Source: Micrococcus luteus NCTC 2665 | Lineage (GTDB): Bacteria > Actinomycetota > Actinomycetes > Actinomycetales > Micrococcaceae | Length of the DNA stretch: 32,000 bases | Direction: 5' to 3' | Assembly: GCF_000023205.1 (NCBI RefSeq) | Contig: NC_012803.1 | Location: 2,010,001-2,042,000, forward strand | Shown: positions 23,899 to 32,000 of the stretch, one piece after another | Numbering within the stretch: position 1 is the first letter of the stretch | How the letters are laid out: each line of letters begins with the position of its first letter | Program-made: the position numbers and the translations under genes | The notes under the pieces: generated by a model | Database searches by the model: none | What the model saw: only the letters and a program-made list of their open reading frames with translations | Told to the model about the DNA's origin: nothing

Positions 23899-24549
23899 AT
23901 GGCCGAGAAGAACGCCGCCGAGTACACCGTCCCGGGCCTGTCCCTGAGCACGGGTCGCCGCACCGCCGAGATCCTCCAGGGCCGCCTGCACGCCCTCAAC
24001 GACCTGCAGCTCACCCTGAAGCACGCCCACTGGAACGTCGTGGGTCCGGGCTTCATCGGCGTGCACGAGATGCTGGACCCGCAGATCGAGCTGGTCCGCG
24101 GAATGGCGGACGTCGTCGCCGAGCGCATCGCCACCCTCGGCGTCTCCCCCGCCGGCACCCCGGGCGCCCTCGTGGCCGCCCGTGCGTGGGACGACTACAC
24201 GCTGGGCCGTGCGTCGACCCTGGAGCACCTGGCCGCGCTGGACCTCGTCTACGACGGCGTCGTGACGGACCACCGCGCCGCGATCGACGCCACCGAGGAC
24301 CTCGACCCGGTCACGCAGGACATCCTCATCGACCAGGTGGCCCAGCTCGAGCTGTTCCAGTGGTTCATGCGCTCCTTCCTGACCACGGACGACGGCCGCC
24401 TGAGCAGCGCGGGTGCGGCCACGGAGGCCGCCGCCGCGGGCCGGGTGAAGGACGACCAGGCCGCGCCCGCCCCGCAGGGCGCGCGCACGAAGAAGTCGGG
24501 TGCCAAGAAGGCCACGGCCTCGAACGCGAAGAAGTCCAAGAAGAAGTGA
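23899..24549 (+). CDS. dps: Dps family DNA-protection/ferritin-like protein with a Lys-rich C-terminal tail
   Basis: Start moved to the ATG at 23899, behind a GGAGAAGGAG SD. Dps core motif HWNVVGPGFIGVHEMLD. Tail ...TKKSGAKKATASNAKKSKKK. Confidence 0.9.
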   Translation: MAEKNAAEYTVPGLSLSTGRRTAEILQGRLHALNDLQLTLKHAHWNVVGPGFIGVHEMLDPQIELVRGMADVVAERIATLGVSPAGTPGALVAARAWDDYTLGRASTLEHLAALDLVYDGVVTDHRAAIDATEDLDPVTQDILIDQVAQLELFQWFMRSFLTTDDGRLSSAGAATEAAAAGRVKDDQAAPAPQGARTKKSGAKKATASNAKKSKKK

Positions 24550-24579
24550 CCGCGCGCCCCTGACGCGCCCCCGTGCCCG

Positions 24580-24611
24580 GAGGGCCCGACCGCACCGCCG
24601 GTCGGGCCCTC
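24580..24611. terminator. stem-loop after dps, shared with the convergent MMPL 3' fragment
   Basis: GAGGGCCCGACC / 8-nt loop / GGTCGGGCCCTC (12-bp perfect stem). Confidence 0.7.
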
Positions 24612-24626
24612 TGTCGCCGTCCGGGC

Positions 24627-24836
24627 TCAGGCGGCCCGCGCCGGCCACCAGACACGCGGGCCGATGTCCCGGACGAGCGCGGGGATCAGCAGGGAGCGCA
24701 CGATCAGCGTATCGAGCAGCACGCCGAACGCGACGATGAATGCCAACTGCACCATGAACATCAGCGGGATCACCGCGAGCGCGGCGAAGGTGGCCGCCAG
24801 CGCTACGACGGTGGAGGTGGCCACACCGCCCGTCAC
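24627..24836 (-). pseudogene. orphan 3'-terminal fragment (last 69 codons) of an MMPL transporter gene
   Basis: It translates to (V)TGGVATSTVVALAATFAALAVIPLMFMVQLAFIVAFGVLLDTLIVRSLLIPALVRDIGPRVWWPARAA. This is nearly identical to the C-terminus of the intact MMPL at 26063-28357. Similarity stops abruptly at ~24838, and there is no upstream coding continuation. Confidence 0.85.
24682..24801. repeat. left copy of a 120-bp perfect direct repeat (candidate crossover core)
   Basis: Base-for-base identical to 26118-26237 (offset 1436) by hand alignment. The flanks are homologous but diverged. Confidence 0.9.
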
Positions 24837-24845
24837 GTCTCCCTC

Positions 24846-24876
24846 TTGACATCCACCACACAGGGAACAATAGTGT
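24846..24876 (+). promoter_or_regulatory. sigma-70-like promoter candidate with an overlapping inverted repeat
   Basis: A perfect TTGACA (24846-24851) is followed by a 17-nt spacer and AATAGT, or a 19-nt spacer and TAGTGT. An inverted repeat GAACA-N4-TGTTC (24865-24878), extendable to ACACAG..AACA/TGTTCTGTGT, overlaps the -10. Confidence 0.4.
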
Positions 24877-24936
24877 TCTGTGTCACTTACTCAAGAGGCA
24901 GGCGGCCACGCTACCTGCCCCCAGTAAGGAGACCCC

Positions 24937-25551
24937 CTGTCGACCTGGAAGACCACATTCGTATCGACGCTCACCGGCCTGGCCGTGGTGACCACGACCC
25001 TCGCCGCACCGAGCTTGGCCTCGGCGCAGTTCCGAGATGACCAGGTGACCCACACCCAAGGACAACCCTCGACTGACAAGGTCGACGACGCTATGCGGCT
25101 CGTTCGTCAAGCTGAGATGGAGGACCCGGCAGGCTTCGCCCGACGGGTCGCAATTCTGGAACAGCTCGGGGACACATTCCGCCTGCCCCATGAGTCGACT
25201 CTTGGCTCCACCGACATGGATCGACTGGCGTTTGCAGCAACCGTGCAGGACCCCCTTGTCCTGCAGGGGCTTGTCGAGATGGTCTCTCGCGGAGACATTG
25301 AGATCATCGAAGGTACACATGGCGCCCCAGTCTGGATAAGCCATCTCGACCCGGAAGACCTGACGGCCTCCAAGGAACCCACCACCCAGGATCTTCCCGC
25401 GTGCCCCTCCGCATGGGCAGCTGCACTGGCATGGATCGGCGCAAACGCGCTCATGTGCACACCGCTCGTTTCTGTTCCGCCGGCGGCCGTCGGCTGCGCC
25501 CTCACGTTCGGAATCGGGGGGTTCATCATCGACGTAAATCAGGGGTGCTGA
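24937..25551 (+). CDS. hypothetical secreted protein with a hydrophobic 4-Cys C-terminal region (cassette ORF1)
   Basis: The ORF track start is GTG 24985. I extend it to the in-frame CTG at 24937, which lies 5 nt after a perfect AAGGAG (24926-24931) and directly after the in-frame TAA at 24925. The extension creates a classical signal peptide (..WKTTFVSTLTGLAVVTTTLAAPSLASA/QF). Codon usage is foreign. The C-terminus is ACPSAWAAALAWIGANALMCTPLVSVPPAAVGCALTFGIGGFIIDVNQGC. Confidence 0.55.
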   Translation: MSTWKTTFVSTLTGLAVVTTTLAAPSLASAQFRDDQVTHTQGQPSTDKVDDAMRLVRQAEMEDPAGFARRVAILEQLGDTFRLPHESTLGSTDMDRLAFAATVQDPLVLQGLVEMVSRGDIEIIEGTHGAPVWISHLDPEDLTASKEPTTQDLPACPSAWAAALAWIGANALMCTPLVSVPPAAVGCALTFGIGGFIIDVNQGC

Positions 25552-25563
25552 CCTCCGGCGAGG

Positions 25564-25965
25564 TTGATGACCCCTCCCGTTCTCAGGAATGAGGAGATCA
25601 TGGAAGTTTGGCGAATTCTCACCGCCGTGTTCCTTGGAGCAACTCTGGCCTCCGCCGGGGCCCTTGGAACCGCCCATGGGATCTGGGTGATCCTGCCTGC
25701 CCTGTGCGTTGTCGCGTTCCTCACCCTGGACTGGCGGGATCGCGATCGCCCTCGCCTGTCCACGCCACGCATGGCAGCCCTGCTCCTGGCCATTGCTGTC
25801 GGCTTGATGGTGCTCCCGCGCGTCGATTGGAGCCCGTACCCGATCATCCTGATCGCCTTCGCGGTGGCATCGGGCACCTTCACGTGGTGGGCGTTGGAGG
25901 ACGTCGGGGCCCGCAGCCTCGATGTGACGACGGCATCCCCGGGTGAAAGCCACGCGCACACCTGA
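25564..25965 (+). CDS. hypothetical small 4-TM membrane protein (cassette ORF2)
   Basis: It starts 13 nt after ORF1, at TTG 25564 or ATG 25567; an alternative ATG at 25600 sits behind GAGGAG. Four hydrophobic helices (VWRILTAVFLGATLASAGAL, IWVILPALCVVAFLTL, MAALLLAIAVGLMVL, PIILIAFAVASGTFTWWAL). Confidence 0.55.
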   Translation: MMTPPVLRNEEIMEVWRILTAVFLGATLASAGALGTAHGIWVILPALCVVAFLTLDWRDRDRPRLSTPRMAALLLAIAVGLMVLPRVDWSPYPIILIAFAVASGTFTWWALEDVGARSLDVTTASPGESHAHT

Positions 25966-25991
25966 GGTGCGGCGTGCAACCACGAACCCAC

Positions 25992-26031
25992 AGCCTGCGG
26001 CCCCGACGACACGTCGTCGGGGCCGCAGGCT
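25992..26031. terminator. 40-nt perfect hairpin between cassette ORF2 and the MMPL stop
   Basis: AGCCTGCGGCCCCGACGAC / AC / GTCGTCGGGGCCGCAGGCT (19-bp arms). Confidence 0.7.
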
Positions 26032-26062
26032 ATGCACCATGTGCCGAAGCGGAGGACCGCCC

Positions 26063-28357
26063 TCAGTCGACCTTCGCCGGCCACCACACCTTCGGGCCGA
26101 TGTCCCGCACGAGCGCCGGGATCAGCAGGGAGCGCACGATCAGCGTATCGAGCAGCACGCCGAACGCGACGATGAATGCCAACTGCACCATGAACATCAG
26201 CGGGATCACCGCGAGCGCGGCGAAGGTGGCCGCCAGCACGACGCCGGCCGAGGTGATGACCCCGCCCGTGACGGTGAGGGCGCGCAGCACGCCCGCCCGC
26301 GTGCCGTGCCGCGGGGTCTCCTCCCGCGCCCGGGTCATCAGGAAGATCGTGTAGTCGATCCCGAGCGCCACGAGGAAGACGAAGCCGTACAGCGGCACGG
26401 TGGGGTCGGCGTCCTCGAAGCCGAACACGTGCCGGAACACGAGGGCCGAGACGCCCAGGGCCGCACCGAAGCTGACCACGGTGGCCGCCACGAGCAGCAC
26501 GGGTGCCAGGAGCGAGCGCAGCAGCACCGCGAGGATGACCAGCAGCATCGCGAGGATCAGCGGGATGACGACCCGCAGGTCGCGCTGCGTGGTGACGTTC
26601 GTGTCCAGCGCCTGGGCCGCCGGGCCGCCCACGAGGATCTCGCCCGTGGCCGGGAGGTCCGCGAGCCGGTCGCGCAGGCGGGCCACGGTCTGCTGCGCGG
26701 CGAGGGACTCGCCCGGGTCCGCCAGGGTGGCCGAGATCAGCACGCGGCCGTCCACCACGCGGGGCTGCGGCTCCGGCGCGGACGCGGCGCCCGTCCCGCC
26801 CTCCGCGTCGAGCGCGCCCGGGGGCAGGCCCGCGGCGGCCTCGGGGGTGTCCGTGGTGACCGCGGCCTCGGCCACGCCGGGGTCCTCCGTGACGGCGGCG
26901 AGCACCGCCTCCGCGTCCCCGGCCGGGGCGAGGATCTGGGCGGGGGCGCCCGCGCCGGCGTCGAAGTGCTCGGTCAGCAGGGCCTGGGCCTGCCGTGCGT
27001 CGGAGTCGCCGAGCAGCACGTCCTCCTGGGCGACGCCGTCCGCGCGCAGCTGCAGCAGGCCGCCGCAGAGGGCGAGGAGCACGACCGTCGTGGCGACCCA
27101 GACGAGGCGGGGCCGGCGCGCGACGACGGCACCCACCCGCGTCCACACCCCGTGGTCCTCCTCGAGGCCGGCGATGGGCCGGCCCGCGCCGTCGCGCGGC
27201 GGGGTGAAGGCCCGGCCTCGGGCGGCGCGGCGCTCCGCGCGACGGCGCGCACGCTCGGGGGACGGGATCGTGGGCCAGAAGGCGGCACGCCCGGTCAGCC
27301 GCAGCAGCGCCGGCAGCAGGGTCAGGGCGGCGAGCCACGCGAAGGCCACACCCGTGGCGGCCACGGGGCCGAGGGAGCGCGTCGAGTTGAGGTCCGAGGC
27401 CATCAGGATCAGCAGGGCGAGGGCCACGGTCGAGGCGGACGCGGTGATCGCGCCGAAGGACCCGCGCACGGCGGCCCGCAGCGCCTCCCCGACGTCCGCG
27501 CGGACCAGCAGCTCCTCGCGGTGCCGGGCCACGAGCAGGAGGCAGTAGTCCGTGGCCGCGCCGATCACGAGGATCGAGAGGATGCCCTGGGCCTGGCCGT
27601 TGAGCTGGATCCAGCCCGCCAGGGCCATCCCGTAGACGGCCACGATCGCGCCGCAGAGCGCGGCCACGGCCGTCAGGAGCACGAGGACCGGCAGCAGGAC
27701 GGAGCGGTAGACCGCCACGAGGATCACGAACACCACCACGAGCGCCACGAGCAGCAGCAGCCCGTCGATCCCCGCGAACGCCCCGCCCAGCTCCGCGACC
27801 AGGCCCGCCGGACCGCCCACGTGCCACTCGGTGTCCGCGGCCACGGTGCCGGCCAGGGCAGGGTCGGCGGCCGCGGGGTCCGCCACGACCCCCCGCAGGT
27901 CGGCCACCACGTCGGCCACGGGTCGCTCGGCCCCGGCCGAGGAGTCGACGAAGGCCAGGAACTGCACCGCCGCACCGTCGTCGGAGGGGATCGGACCGGC
28001 GACGTCGGTCACCCCCGGCACCTCGCCCAGCCGGCCCGCGAGGTCCGCGAGCGCGGGGAAGGCGGTCGCGGGGTCCACGGTGCTCGCCGGGCCCACGACG
28101 ACGGCGGGCACGGCCTCACCGTCCTGGAACGCCGCCGCCTCCTCCCCCGCGCGGGTGGACTCGGCCGACGCCGGCAGGAAGGTGGCCTGGTCGTTCGAGG
28201 AGACGTCGCCGATCGCGCCGAACACGGGGCCGCCCAGGCCGAGCACGGCGAGCCAGACCACGGCGAGCGCCGCGGCCAGGCCCAGCCGCAGCCCCCGAGA
28301 GGGACGCCCCGTGGCGGCGGGGGTGCGGAAGGCGGACAGGTCGGGCGGGGTGGGCAT
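26063..28357 (-). CDS. MMPL family (RND superfamily) membrane transporter
   Basis: Start moved to the ATG at 28355-28357 (MPTPPDLSAF...). 764 aa with two 6-TM bundles and two extracytoplasmic loops. MMPL hallmarks FLPASAES and GIDYTIFLMTRAREE. Confidence 0.9.
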   Translation of the reverse strand: MPTPPDLSAFRTPAATGRPSRGLRLGLAAALAVVWLAVLGLGGPVFGAIGDVSSNDQATFLPASAESTRAGEEAAAFQDGEAVPAVVVGPASTVDPATAFPALADLAGRLGEVPGVTDVAGPIPSDDGAAVQFLAFVDSSAGAERPVADVVADLRGVVADPAAADPALAGTVAADTEWHVGGPAGLVAELGGAFAGIDGLLLLVALVVVFVILVAVYRSVLLPVLVLLTAVAALCGAIVAVYGMALAGWIQLNGQAQGILSILVIGAATDYCLLLVARHREELLVRADVGEALRAAVRGSFGAITASASTVALALLILMASDLNSTRSLGPVAATGVAFAWLAALTLLPALLRLTGRAAFWPTIPSPERARRRAERRAARGRAFTPPRDGAGRPIAGLEEDHGVWTRVGAVVARRPRLVWVATTVVLLALCGGLLQLRADGVAQEDVLLGDSDARQAQALLTEHFDAGAGAPAQILAPAGDAEAVLAAVTEDPGVAEAAVTTDTPEAAAGLPPGALDAEGGTGAASAPEPQPRVVDGRVLISATLADPGESLAAQQTVARLRDRLADLPATGEILVGGPAAQALDTNVTTQRDLRVVIPLILAMLLVILAVLLRSLLAPVLLVAATVVSFGAALGVSALVFRHVFGFEDADPTVPLYGFVFLVALGIDYTIFLMTRAREETPRHGTRAGVLRALTVTGGVITSAGVVLAATFAALAVIPLMFMVQLAFIVAFGVLLDTLIVRSLLIPALVRDIGPKVWWPAKVD
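26118..26237. repeat. right copy of the 120-bp perfect direct repeat, inside the intact MMPL gene
   Basis: Identical to 24682-24801. Confidence 0.9.
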
Positions 28358-29406: not shown

Positions 29407-29561
29407 CGGCGGCGCCGCCCGGGGTCCGGGCGTTGGGGGTCTGCGTGCGGGCCGGCCGGGCACCGGGACCGGAGCGGTGCGCTCCGCTTAGGTGTAGCAT
29501 CGGAGGCGGCGCGCCGCGTCCGGCCGCGTCCCACCCCAGCGCACGGAGACCTCCCCTTCCC

Positions 29562-32000
29562 ATGGCGACACTGCTCTACCGTCTCGGCCTCGGCGCCGCC
29601 CGCCGCCCCCTCCTCGTGATCCTCGCCTGGGTGCTCGCCCTGGCTCTCGCCGTCGGCGGGTTCCTCGTCTTCGGCGGCACGCTCTCCTCCACCGTCACCA
29701 TCCCCGGCACGCCCACCGCCCAGGTCACGGACCGCCTCAAGGAGGAGTTCCCCGAGGCCTCCCGCGGCAGGGGCCAGGTCGTGTTCACCACCGAGGACGG
29801 CTCCCCCCTGACCGACGCCCAGCGCGAGCAGATCACCGCCCTGCTGGACGACGTCGCCGAACAGGAGGCCGTGGAGGGCGTCGTGGACCCGTTCGAGGCC
29901 CAGGCCCAGCAGGACGACGCCCGCACCCGGCTCGACGAGGGCCGCACCGAGCTGGCCGACGGCGAGCAGCGACTCGCGGACGGACGCCAGGAGATCGAGG
30001 ACGGCCGGGCCGAGCTCGAGCGGCGCACGGCCGAGGCCGACGCGGGCGAGCAGCGTCTCGCCGAGGCCGCCGCCCAGCTGGACGAGGGGCAGGCCACGCT
30101 CGACGCCGCGCGCGCCGACCTCGAGGAGCGCGGCCTGGAGGCCCTGCCGACCGACGCCCTGGCCCCGCTCCGGGAGGCCGAGCAGCAGGTGGCCGACGGC
30201 CAGGAGCAGCTCGACGCCGGCCGCGCCGAGCTCGAGGAGCAGGCGGAGCGCCTCGAGGCCGGCCAGGCCGAGATCGACGCACAGCGGCAGGAGCTCGAGG
30301 CCGGGCAGGCCGAGCTCGGCGACCGGTGGACCGAGCTCGAGGCCGGGCAGGCCGAGCTCGACGCCCAGGCCGAGCGGCTGGCCGCGGGCCGCGCCGAGCT
30401 CGAGCAGGCCCGGGACGCCGCGCTGGCCGAGGCCGAGGCCGCCGGCATCCCGGCGGAGCAGGTCGCCGCGCAGTTCGCCGACCAGGAGGCGCAGCTCGCC
30501 GCCGGCGAGGCACAGCTGGCGGCCGGTCAGGACCAGGCCGACGCCGCCCGCGCGCAGCTGGAGGCCGCCCAGGCCGAGGCCGACGCGGGCGCCGAACAGC
30601 TCGCGGCCGCCCAGGCGGAGGCCGACGACGGCGCCGCCCGACTCGCCGCCGGCCGGCAGCAGCTGCAGGAGTCCGAGGCCGAGCTCGAGGCCGGCCGCGA
30701 GCAGGTGGCCGCGGGACGGCAGCAGGCCCTGGACGCTGCCGAGGCCGAGCTCGACGCGCAGCAGCAGAAGATCGACGAGGGCCGGGCCGAGTACGAGCGC
30801 GGCGTCGCCGAGCTCGAGGACGGCCGGGCCCAGCTGGCCGCCGGCGCGGACCGCCTGGACCAGGCCGAGGCCGACCTCGCCGACGGCCGCGCCGAGCTGG
30901 ACGACGGCCGCGTGGAGGCCGAGCGCGGCGAGCGCACCCTGGCCCTCGCGGAGGACTTCCGCACCGTGTCCGAGGACGGCAGCACCGCCGTCGGGATCGT
31001 CACCTTCACCACGCCGACCCTGGACGTCACCGCCGAGGACAAGGAGGCGGTCACCGGCGCCCTCACCGGCGCGGACATCGACGGCGTCGCCGTGCATCCG
31101 TCCCAGGAGCTCAACGCCACCGTGCCCTCCCTGCTCGGCCCGGGCGAGGTCGTGGGCCTCGTGGTCGCCGCGATCGTGCTGGTGGTCATGCTCGGCACCC
31201 TCGTGGGCGCGGGTCTGCCGCTGGTCAACGCGCTGGTGGGCGTGGGCGTGGGCGCCGCCGGGGCGCTCGCGTTCTCCTCCGCCGTGGAGATGATCTCCGT
31301 GACCCCGGTGCTCGGGGTGATGCTGGGCCTGGCCGTGGGCATCGACTACGCGCTGTTCATCGTCAACCGGCACCGCCAGGAGCTGCGTCGCGGCACGGGC
31401 CTGCACGAGTCGATCGCGCTGGCCACCGGCACCTCCGGCAACGCCGTGGTGTTCGCCGGCGTGACCGTGGTGATCGCCCTCGCGGCCCTGAACGTCACCG
31501 GCATCGGCTTCCTGGGCCTGATGGGCACGGTGGGCGCGGTGTGCGTGGCCGTCGCCGTGCTCGTGGCGATCACCCTGACCCCGGCCCTGCTGGCCCTGGC
31601 CGGCCCGCGCGTGCTCTCGCGCCGGGAGCGCGCCCGGCTCGCCGACACCTCCCCGGCCGTCGGCGAGGGCGCCCACGCCGTGCGCCGCGCCCACCGCCGC
31701 GCCACGCTGTCCACGCCGACCGCCCTCGCCACGGCGCTCGCCTCCGTGGCCCTGCTCGTCCTCGTGGCGGTGCCGTTCTGGTCCATGCGCCTGGGCCTGC
31801 CGGACGGCGGCTCCGAGCCCGAGGGCTCGGACTCCCAGCTCGCCTACGCGCTCACGGCCGAGAGGTTCGGCGAGGGCTACAACGGCCCGCTCGTGGTCAC
31901 CGTGGACCTGCCCGCCGGCCTGGACGAGGGGCGTGCCACGGACGTCCAGCTCGACGTCGGCGAGCAGCTGGTCGCCCTCGACCACGCGCACGCCGTGGTG
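29562..32000 (+). CDS. MMPL family transporter with a large coiled-coil insertion, 3' end outside the window
   Basis: Hand translation from the ATG at 29562 (frame 0) runs without a stop to the window edge. It reads MATLLYRLGLGAARRPLLVILAWVLALALAVGGF..., then ~350 aa of heptads, then the MMPL core (GIDYALFIVNRHRQEL). This ORF is absent from the track only because it has no stop in the window. Confidence 0.85.
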   Translation, partial: MATLLYRLGLGAARRPLLVILAWVLALALAVGGFLVFGGTLSSTVTIPGTPTAQVTDRLKEEFPEASRGRGQVVFTTEDGSPLTDAQREQITALLDDVAEQEAVEGVVDPFEAQAQQDDARTRLDEGRTELADGEQRLADGRQEIEDGRAELERRTAEADAGEQRLAEAAAQLDEGQATLDAARADLEERGLEALPTDALAPLREAEQQVADGQEQLDAGRAELEEQAERLEAGQAEIDAQRQELEAGQAELGDRWTELEAGQAELDAQAERLAAGRAELEQARDAALAEAEAAGIPAEQVAAQFADQEAQLAAGEAQLAAGQDQADAARAQLEAAQAEADAGAEQLAAAQAEADDGAARLAAGRQQLQESEAELEAGREQVAAGRQQALDAAEAELDAQQQKIDEGRAEYERGVAELEDGRAQLAAGADRLDQAEADLADGRAELDDGRVEAERGERTLALAEDFRTVSEDGSTAVGIVTFTTPTLDVTAEDKEAVTGALTGADIDGVAVHPSQELNATVPSLLGPGEVVGLVVAAIVLVVMLGTLVGAGLPLVNALVGVGVGAAGALAFSSAVEMISVTPVLGVMLGLAVGIDYALFIVNRHRQELRRGTGLHESIALATGTSGNAVVFAGVTVVIALAALNVTGIGFLGLMGTVGAVCVAVAVLVAITLTPALLALAGPRVLSRRERARLADTSPAVGEGAHAVRRAHRRATLSTPTALATALASVALLVLVAVPFWSMRLGLPDGGSEPEGSDSQLAYALTAERFGEGYNGPLVVTVDLPAGLDEGRATDVQLDVGEQLVALDHAHAVV
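30291..30360 (+). repeat. 28-bp perfect direct repeat with 42-bp period inside the coiled-coil coding region
   Basis: GAGCTCGAGGCCGGGCAGGCCGAGCTCG occurs at 30291-30318 and again at 30333-30360 (encoding ELEAGQAEL twice). Confidence 0.8.

Follow-up and report, generated by a model that had tools for sequence, protein, structure and literature searches.

How two foreign genes come to lie between duplicated copies of the same gene end, with no recombinase among them or beside them, is the question raised by one locus of Micrococcus luteus NCTC 2665. We analysed 32,000 nucleotides (nt) of its chromosome (RefSeq assembly GCF_000023205.1, contig NC_012803.1, positions 2,010,001 to 2,042,000 of the forward strand). 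This whole stretch is referred to below as the window, and positions are counted from its first letter. Within it, a small cassette of low GC content separates an intact gene for an MMPL transporter from a detached copy of that gene's 3' end. On balance, we lean toward reading this arrangement as the scar of an insertion-duplication event, performed by the host's own homologous recombination and reshaped since, and not as a self-mobile element. The features that frame the locus are the following:

23899-24549, plus strand: dps (ferritin-like), the left neighbour (Pfam PF00210, identity profiles)
24578-24613, plus strand: terminator hairpin of dps, the left host boundary (-33.6 kcal/mol, z = -5.6)
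24627-24836 (repeat 24621-24837), minus strand: left copy, the last 69 codons of an MMPL gene (list of open reading frames [ORFs], repeat, Pfam)
24838-26062, plus strand: foreign cassette of 1,225 bp (GC 0.64; low GC at third codon positions [GC3])
26063-28357, minus strand: intact MMPL transporter gene, 764 codons (domain matches, comparisons)

The two MMPL ends form a direct repeat (24621-24837 and 26057-26273) of 217 nt that is 90% identical, with a spacing of 1,436 bp, and both copies match Pfam MMPL. The right copy is the last 69 codons of the intact gene (26063-26272, ending ...PKVWWPAKVD). The left copy falls into three parts: a stop-codon side (24627-24681, ending ...PRVWWPARAA), a core (24682-24801), and an upstream side (24802-24837), which reads VATSTVVAL where all relatives examined have VITSAGVVL. 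The core is identical to 26118-26237 over 120 nt and cannot be extended by one base on either side. Its flanks match between the copies at 45 of 55 positions (82%) on the stop-codon side and at 26 of 36 (72%) on the other, and given the ~22% flank divergence, the chance of 120 nt without a mismatch is ~1e-13. Homology is lost beyond 24838 (12 matches in 43 positions) and beyond the stop codon (17 in 47). The stop codon of the intact gene exactly abuts the right edge of the cassette, and the duplicated segment starts at this same stop codon.

The DNA between the copies is compositionally foreign. Its GC content is 0.640, against a mean of 0.740 +/- 0.029 and a minimum of 0.675 for other windows of 1,225 nt, and GC3 is 0.72 in ORF1 and 0.78 in ORF2, against 0.94-0.97 in dnaK, dps, MMPL, and MarR. 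The cassette brings its own genes and signals:

24846-24874, plus strand: sigma-70-like promoter, TTGACA, 17-nt spacer, AATAGT (1 site found against 0.1 expected)
24937-25551, plus strand: ORF1, 204 codons, with AAGGAG upstream at 24927
25600-25965, plus strand: ORF2, a membrane protein of 121 amino acids (aa) with four hydrophobic segments, as seen from its sequence
25989-26034, unstranded: hairpin with a 22-bp stem between the convergent ORF2 and MMPL genes (-45.1 kcal/mol, z = -7.9)

The hairpin is probably a bidirectional terminator for ORF2 and MMPL. No integrase or transposase was found in the cassette by Pfam or NCBIfam, and there are no recombinase domains either in the cassette or in its neighbours (dnaJ, grpE, dnaK, dps, MMPL, MarR, and a PRK-like gene). 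A noncoding RNA reading of the region was set aside, as Rfam gave only sub-threshold matches, to the hairpin and, in one case, to the 3' end of dps with its terminator. Much of this outline had been drawn in a first-pass annotation made from the letters of the window. Its two MMPL 3' copies 1,436 bp apart (the left with only the last 69 codons) agree with the coordinates and Pfam, its 120-bp mismatch-free stretch is exact, and homology does end abruptly at ~24838. The lower GC of the intervening DNA was borne out by calculation, and the perfect TTGACA, the two ORFs, the hairpin, and the lack of an integrase or transposase are all as described. As for its flank identities, about 82% on the stop side holds, and the ~69% given for the other side was an estimate for which 72% was measured.

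The window matches the M. luteus NCTC 2665 sequence LS483396.1 at 99.99% identity. All cassette-bearing Micrococcus loci that we retrieved have the same structure at the same dnaK-dps-MMPL site. The order dnaJ-grpE-dnaK-dps-(fragment)-(ORF1)-ORF2-MMPL-MarR is found in 10 of the 10 ORF2 contexts listed, with the fragment gene called in nine and an apparent assembly gap at that point in the tenth. In six contigs with the fragment allele P0156, the fragment lies beside dps, the cassette genes, or both, and the dps terminator next to the fragment is also conserved in loci L076 and L083. Empty sites are found in relatives. When one genome per species was scanned with the MMPL protein, 56 loci were returned, of which one (M. 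antarcticus ABH-515; L011/L068) carries the cassette. In others (L008, L010, L012, L014, L015, L021, L047, and more; the species include M. lacusdianchii, other Micrococcus, and Citricoccus), MMPL is followed directly by dps and dnaK. The segment that is repeated on both sides of the insert is single-copy next to dps in L008, L010, L012, L075, and others. The Logan contig L075 has a single MMPL gene ending ...PRVWWPARAA with dps directly next to it, exactly the form of empty site that the first-pass annotation had anticipated. The observation that it had named as speaking against its own scenario, tandem full-length MMPL paralogues in relatives, was also looked for, and there are none at this site in the 56 related loci.

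In Campbell-type (insertion-duplication) integration, as exploited in suicide vectors and insertion-duplication mutagenesis, a non-replicating circle enters the chromosome by one homologous crossover. We favour an event of this type because the repeats of strain L083 (UGPQ01000001), which is 95.8% identical to the window over the locus, show the chimeric pattern that a single crossover predicts. In the left copy of L083, synonymous sites of the stop-side half resemble native sequence, and this half adjoins a spacer and dps terminator of its own; in the right copy, the stop-side half has synonymous states unseen in the native sequences compared (GTATCG and GCAC, with GAAT in the window) and hardly varies among the three cassette-carrying lineages. 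Conversely, the upstream side of the left copy (u') is atypical and cassette-linked, and that of the right copy is native and gene-linked. Read from its upstream side (VATSTVVALEVTF), the left copy of L083 continues with 60 nt identical to its own right copy and then with eight synonymous differences. From there to the stop codon it again matches the right copy, so that both L083 copies end ...PAKVD, and beyond the stop codon come a spacer unlike that of the window and the dps terminator. The right copies of L083 and the window differ at 1 position in 210 nt. Two further features emerge from the comparison:

24733-24792, unstranded: 60 nt over which the two copies agree fully in every strain compared, L083 among them (coding positions 44-103 mismatch-free in L083)
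24375-24741, unstranded: recombinant patch in which the window diverges from L083 (62-75% identity)

The former would be the only candidate crossover zone common to the alleles compared. The latter covers the dps tail, the terminator, the spacer, the stop side of the left copy, and half of the core, in a locus in which the window and L083 are 95-100% identical along most of their length (82% in the dnaK-dps intergenic stretch). Also in this part of dps, the Lys-rich C-terminal tail of the protein (24488-24526) has a 39-nt indel relative to L083.

The mosaic nature of the repeats changes how the perfect core should be read. At their longest, the mismatch-free runs measure 120 nt in loci of the NCTC 2665 type, 107 nt in those of the ABH-515 type, and 60 nt in L083, and their position shifts. 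Because the run varies by lineage, we attribute the 120-nt core to lineage-specific gene conversion or later homogenisation, and the earlier proposal that it marks the crossover site cannot be kept. Similarly, the ...PARAA end had been taken for the original end of the host gene, displaced by the insertion. It lies in the patch at 24375-24741 and arrived with that import, and therefore it is not necessarily the displaced end; with both L083 copies ending ...PAKVD, the claim is doubtful. All four combinations of left-copy upstream side and end exist among strains. The two stop-side versions match five Micrococcus relatives about equally (43-47 of 55 and 41-46 of 55 positions), and because both look like native Micrococcus sequence, the AAG lysine codons once thought to betray a cassette-borne end are no sign of foreign origin.

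The history that we propose would begin when a foreign two-gene operon was linked to 212 bp from the 3' end of a Micrococcus MMPL gene. This composite DNA would have integrated into the MMPL gene of the chromosome through one Campbell-type crossover, or an equivalent ends-in event, to leave a truncated 69-codon copy beside the dps terminator, the cassette, and a restored full-length MMPL gene with its last codons and terminator hairpin supplied by the cassette. Afterwards, the structure has passed among Micrococcus lineages in larger homologous-recombination tracts, and the two copies have been patched repeatedly, whether through gene conversion or through the import of alleles from other strains. 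This later history accounts for the ...PARAA end of the window as well as for its perfect 120-nt core. As in Campbell integration, direct repeats flank the insert, the repeats appear chimeric, no dedicated recombinase is needed, and the target gene is intact since the arm reaches the gene end. Unlike Campbell vectors, the structure arose in nature, its arm measures 212 bp and its payload 1.2 kb, no circle or vector has been observed and the repeats have since become mosaic. The Campbell-type integration put forward in the first-pass annotation is thus partly supported, by the foreign insert, the empty sites, and the chimeric repeats of L083, shorn of the 120-bp core as crossover and of the displaced ...PARAA end, and with no circle found. 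An empty site in which the MMPL gene ends ...PAKVD and is followed by the spacer ACCGCGCAGGAGGGAGG would represent the ancestral host of the Campbell event.

The later travels of the structure can be followed more directly. Comparison with M. antarcticus ABH-515 demonstrates, at the level of sequence, that the cassette spreads between Micrococcus species as a passenger of flanking homologous recombination. The tract involved is the following:

~24300-26224, unstranded: block transferred most recently by homologous recombination (6 differences from M. antarcticus ABH-515)

This ~1.9-kb block starts inside dps (~24300) and ends inside the core of the right copy (~26224), and the part of MMPL up to ~26224 therefore co-travels with the cassette. 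The flanks of the block differ between the window and ABH-515 by 7-47% per 100 nt. Over the regions outside it, identity per 100 nt is 53-82% along most of the MMPL body and 56-69% in the 5' part of dps. The cassette itself differs from that of the window at 5 positions in ABH-515 and 13 in L076. The last transfer therefore occurred by homologous recombination in the flanks, with the duplication already present.

Several observations weigh against the insertion-duplication reading. The changes in the upstream side of the left copy are clustered (10 of 36 nt, and up to 13 in L083), and this cluster is unexplained under any model. No paralogue that could have donated it is present in the window or in any fetched locus. 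A protein search for a full-length MMPL donor with VATSTVVAL returned just short proteins, among them the allelic fragments. The circle or donor intermediate is hypothetical, as none carrying cassette plus fragment was found. No empty site was found within M. luteus, those available being from other species. Finally, the chimeric pattern of L083 could also be produced by later patches or by a one-sided route, the latter being the main rival, as it leads to the same end state.

In this one-sided (homology-facilitated illegitimate) route, which we hold to be considerably less probable, the cassette would first have landed, in a single Micrococcus lineage, in the intergenic space immediately after the stop codon of MMPL. 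The dps-spacer-MMPL 3' end of another strain would then have recombined in dps and been joined illegitimately at the left edge of the cassette, adding the 69-codon piece. In L083 and in the window alike, the left copy, spacer, and dps terminator look natively intact and differ as a block, and the Micrococcus-like character of both stop-side versions is equally in keeping with this route. Homology-facilitated illegitimate recombination occurs in natural transformation (PMC3240628), and M. luteus is naturally transformable (PMC4322843, PMC6667448, PMC8467076). The locus resembles its products in having foreign DNA beside a conserved gene in a competent host, with no mobile-element functions, and differs from them in the 212-bp duplication. 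The process normally yields an insertion with a deletion. The route also requires two separate rare events and leaves the scrambled upstream side at the joint unexplained, and no genome with dps, cassette, and MMPL in the absence of the left fragment is among the loci retrieved.

A different reading, which we consider doubtful, makes the 1,436-bp unit a minimal mobile cassette that has no recombinase of its own and uses its MMPL arm to cycle between a circle or tandem and the integrated state, via RecA or a recombinase acting in trans. It would restore the host gene on entry, in a naturally transformable genus. The metagenome contigs L077 (1,393 nt) and L079 (1,394 nt) show the unit in circularly permuted order (cassette, one repeat copy, cassette), both ending ~43 nt short of closing, and another fragment-bearing contig (P0153) has a length of 1,438 nt. 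RecA-dependent excision, moreover, acts on direct repeats of 60-151 nt. The reading takes the junctions in the permuted contigs as real, and these contigs could indeed represent circles or tandems. However, they may instead be assembly loops, the repeat being longer than the k-mer and than the span of a read: assemblers can emit such contigs when a repeat longer than the k-mer size closes a loop in the graph, and the repeat in the L077 strain would be ~151 nt (P0012). Other evidence that counts against a mobile cassette is that it occupies a single chromosomal site only, that its transfer between species used homology far outside the repeats, that the identical core differs between lineages, and that an exact 25-nt conserved ORF2 pattern had no match in viral contigs or JGI metagenome contigs. 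A plasmid or phage origin was rejected, as DNA and protein searches for a plasmid or phage copy returned only unrelated MMPL ends. A new class of mobile cassette is possible but is not what we favour.

It is less probable still, and in our view unlikely, that an integrative element or transposon of larger size once used the MMPL 3' end for attachment and, having lost its recombinase, was reduced to the present locus. Genomic islands can integrate in the 3' end of a tRNA or protein gene via an integrase, restoring the gene, and are typically about ten times the size of this insert. As with such islands, the target 3' end is duplicated here, the functional copy would end in element-borne sequence, and the displaced end would be at the far side. 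The locus is unlike them in being ~10x smaller, in having no integrase, and in showing similarity on both sides of the identical stretch, the length of which is 60-120 nt depending on the strain. An integrase-mediated island was rejected on the grounds that there is no recombinase in or beside the insert and no fixed identical att core among carriers. Consistent with a lost element, some distant relatives of the ORF1/ORF2 module adjoin a resolvase (Auritidibacter L001) or a resolvase, Mu-type transposase, and AAA_22 protein (L081). Between the copies, however, the Micrococcus loci examined have no remains of a recombinase, no inverted repeats, and no additional DNA; the similarity on both sides of the identical stretch ends inside the gene, unlike an att core; and core length varies by lineage.

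That the fragment is what is left of a deleted tandem MMPL paralogue, with the identity due to gene conversion, we regard as very improbable: gene conversion between the copies clearly happens, and metagenome contig L078 has an unrelated MMPL end that was truncated at another point, but no relative syntenic for dps and MMPL has two MMPL genes here, and the right edge of the cassette lies exactly at the stop codon of the intact gene, where the duplicated segment begins. Contig L078 (898 nt) contains an MMPL 3' remnant broken at a position corresponding to 24794 of the window and a dps cut at 24412, both joined to unrelated sequence, and is either a separate rearrangement or a chimeric contig. 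Other known kinds of insert were also considered and rejected. An integron gene cassette was excluded because there is no integrase in the neighbourhood and the cassette has its own promoter and two genes. An orphan C-terminal module of a contact-dependent inhibition (CDI) or Rhs system was excluded because the fragment is MMPL transmembrane sequence, near-identical to the live copy, and the cassette genes are on the opposite strand. A transposon passenger was excluded because transposase or resolvase genes lie beside distant homologues only and are absent from the window and the Micrococcus loci examined.

The distant homologues of ORF1 and ORF2 bear on whether the pair always travels with an MMPL 3' fragment, a point that the first-pass annotation had raised. 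It does not, as the distant homologues are not beside MMPL fragments. Nor are duplicated gene ends a general feature of the modules, an idea that we rejected after finding no direct repeats beyond chance level (none in L080 and L004, and two at chance level in L001, of 25-31 nt and 71-76% identity). Two of the distant modules adjoin resolvase or transposase genes. In Auritidibacter L001 (4213-9043), two divergent modules flank a resolvase interrupted by an ISL3 element, and in L081 (4968-6919), the module comes after the resolvase, Mu-type transposase, and AAA_22 protein. By eye, no common sequence was evident between the region upstream of the cassette genes and the resolvase-proximal regions of L001 and L081.

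In the ORF1 protein, a Sec-type signal peptide (...APSLASA/QF) precedes a helical N-terminal domain, and the C-terminal part is a hydrophobic helical hairpin with four cysteines, which occupies residues 157-197 in the AlphaFold2 model. Over 22 sequences, residues P154, C156, W160, C174, C187, D199, N201, and C204 are invariant and the motif P-x-C...W...C...C...D-x-N-x-x-C is kept. The family comprises only 22 clusters among 1.84 billion representatives, and ORF1 has no match to a known family or fold in Pfam, NCBIfam, PHROGs, PADLOC, or PDB sequences, or by Foldseek against PDB. In five independent contexts, an ORF1 homologue is followed by an ORF of 111-125 aa with four hydrophobic segments (the pair is conserved in L001, where it occurs twice, L004, L080, and L081). 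The exact ORF2 protein (P0007) is listed in 173 contig-index blocks.

The pair thus has the layout of a bacteriocin and its immunity gene, in that a secreted precursor with a hydrophobic domain and an adjacent membrane protein are conserved together. Judging from architecture, ORF1 is possibly a secreted bacteriocin-like pro-protein with a C-terminal, disulfide-stapled hydrophobic hairpin, and ORF2 a small membrane immunity protein. Against this, the searches named above gave no homology support. Faye and colleagues reportedly described, in 2002 (J Bacteriol 184:3649, a reference given in PMC5756557), a protease-activated antimicrobial peptide of Propionibacterium jensenii. Secreted pro-protein bacteriocins of the P. 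jensenii type share with the predicted ORF1 product a Sec signal peptide, followed by ~110 aa of pro-region and by a C-terminal peptide that is small and hydrophobic, and in the cassette a small membrane protein gene comes right after ORF1; ORF1 has no detectable sequence or fold similarity to these bacteriocins.

ORF1 starts with CTG in the window, as in every locus of the NCTC 2665 type, and with ATG in ABH-515, L076, L077, L079, and P0001. Because of the CTG start, public annotations of the NCTC 2665 lineage call a shorter ORF from 24985/24988, without most of the signal peptide. Frameshifted variants of ORF1 (P0002-P0004) also exist, whereas ORF2 is invariant. Together, these observations would fit decay of a toxin gene with retention of immunity, and the putative toxin gene of NCTC 2665 would then be one that has lost its ATG. 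With regard to possible control of the genes, an imperfect palindrome (ACACAGGGAACA-ATAG-TGTTCTGTGT, 24856-24885) overlaps the -10 region of the cassette promoter and looks like an operator, and in a related metagenome locus (L004), a helix-turn-helix gene adjoins the module.

Some other observations concern the fragment and the surroundings of the locus. The 69-codon fragment has its start codon exactly at the junction (24836-24850, minus strand; GTG here, and ATG in L076, L079, and L083), with GAGGGAG directly upstream, and could, from its sequence, be translated into a small peptide with two transmembrane segments. In two Micrococcus metagenome-assembled genomes (L009 and L017), dnaK comes directly after MMPL and dps is absent, so that the stretch between MMPL and dnaK varies within the genus. 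A 1,028-bp contig filed as Streptomyces sp. NPDC052101 (L054) is 97.9% identical to the M. luteus MMPL gene and is probably contamination of the Streptomyces assembly. At the right end of the window (29560-32000) is a large gene of ~1,090 codons with CRWN_N/HmpF-like and MMPL domains, which gives internal repetitive matches in cross-species comparisons (29.9-30.9 kb).

If the insertion-duplication reading is correct, the type strain of M. luteus would provide a clean natural example of foreign genes fixed by insertion-duplication and carried between species by homologous recombination alone, with a bearing on how competent bacteria may acquire small islets without mobile-element machinery. It should be noted that later homogenisation can itself produce a perfect core in a pair of repeats, which is then not necessarily the mark of the original crossover. 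With its payload, the cassette defines a small family, so far uncharacterised, of secreted four-cysteine proteins (22 clusters), each with a partner membrane protein, and the two genes are possibly a new bacteriocin-like pair.

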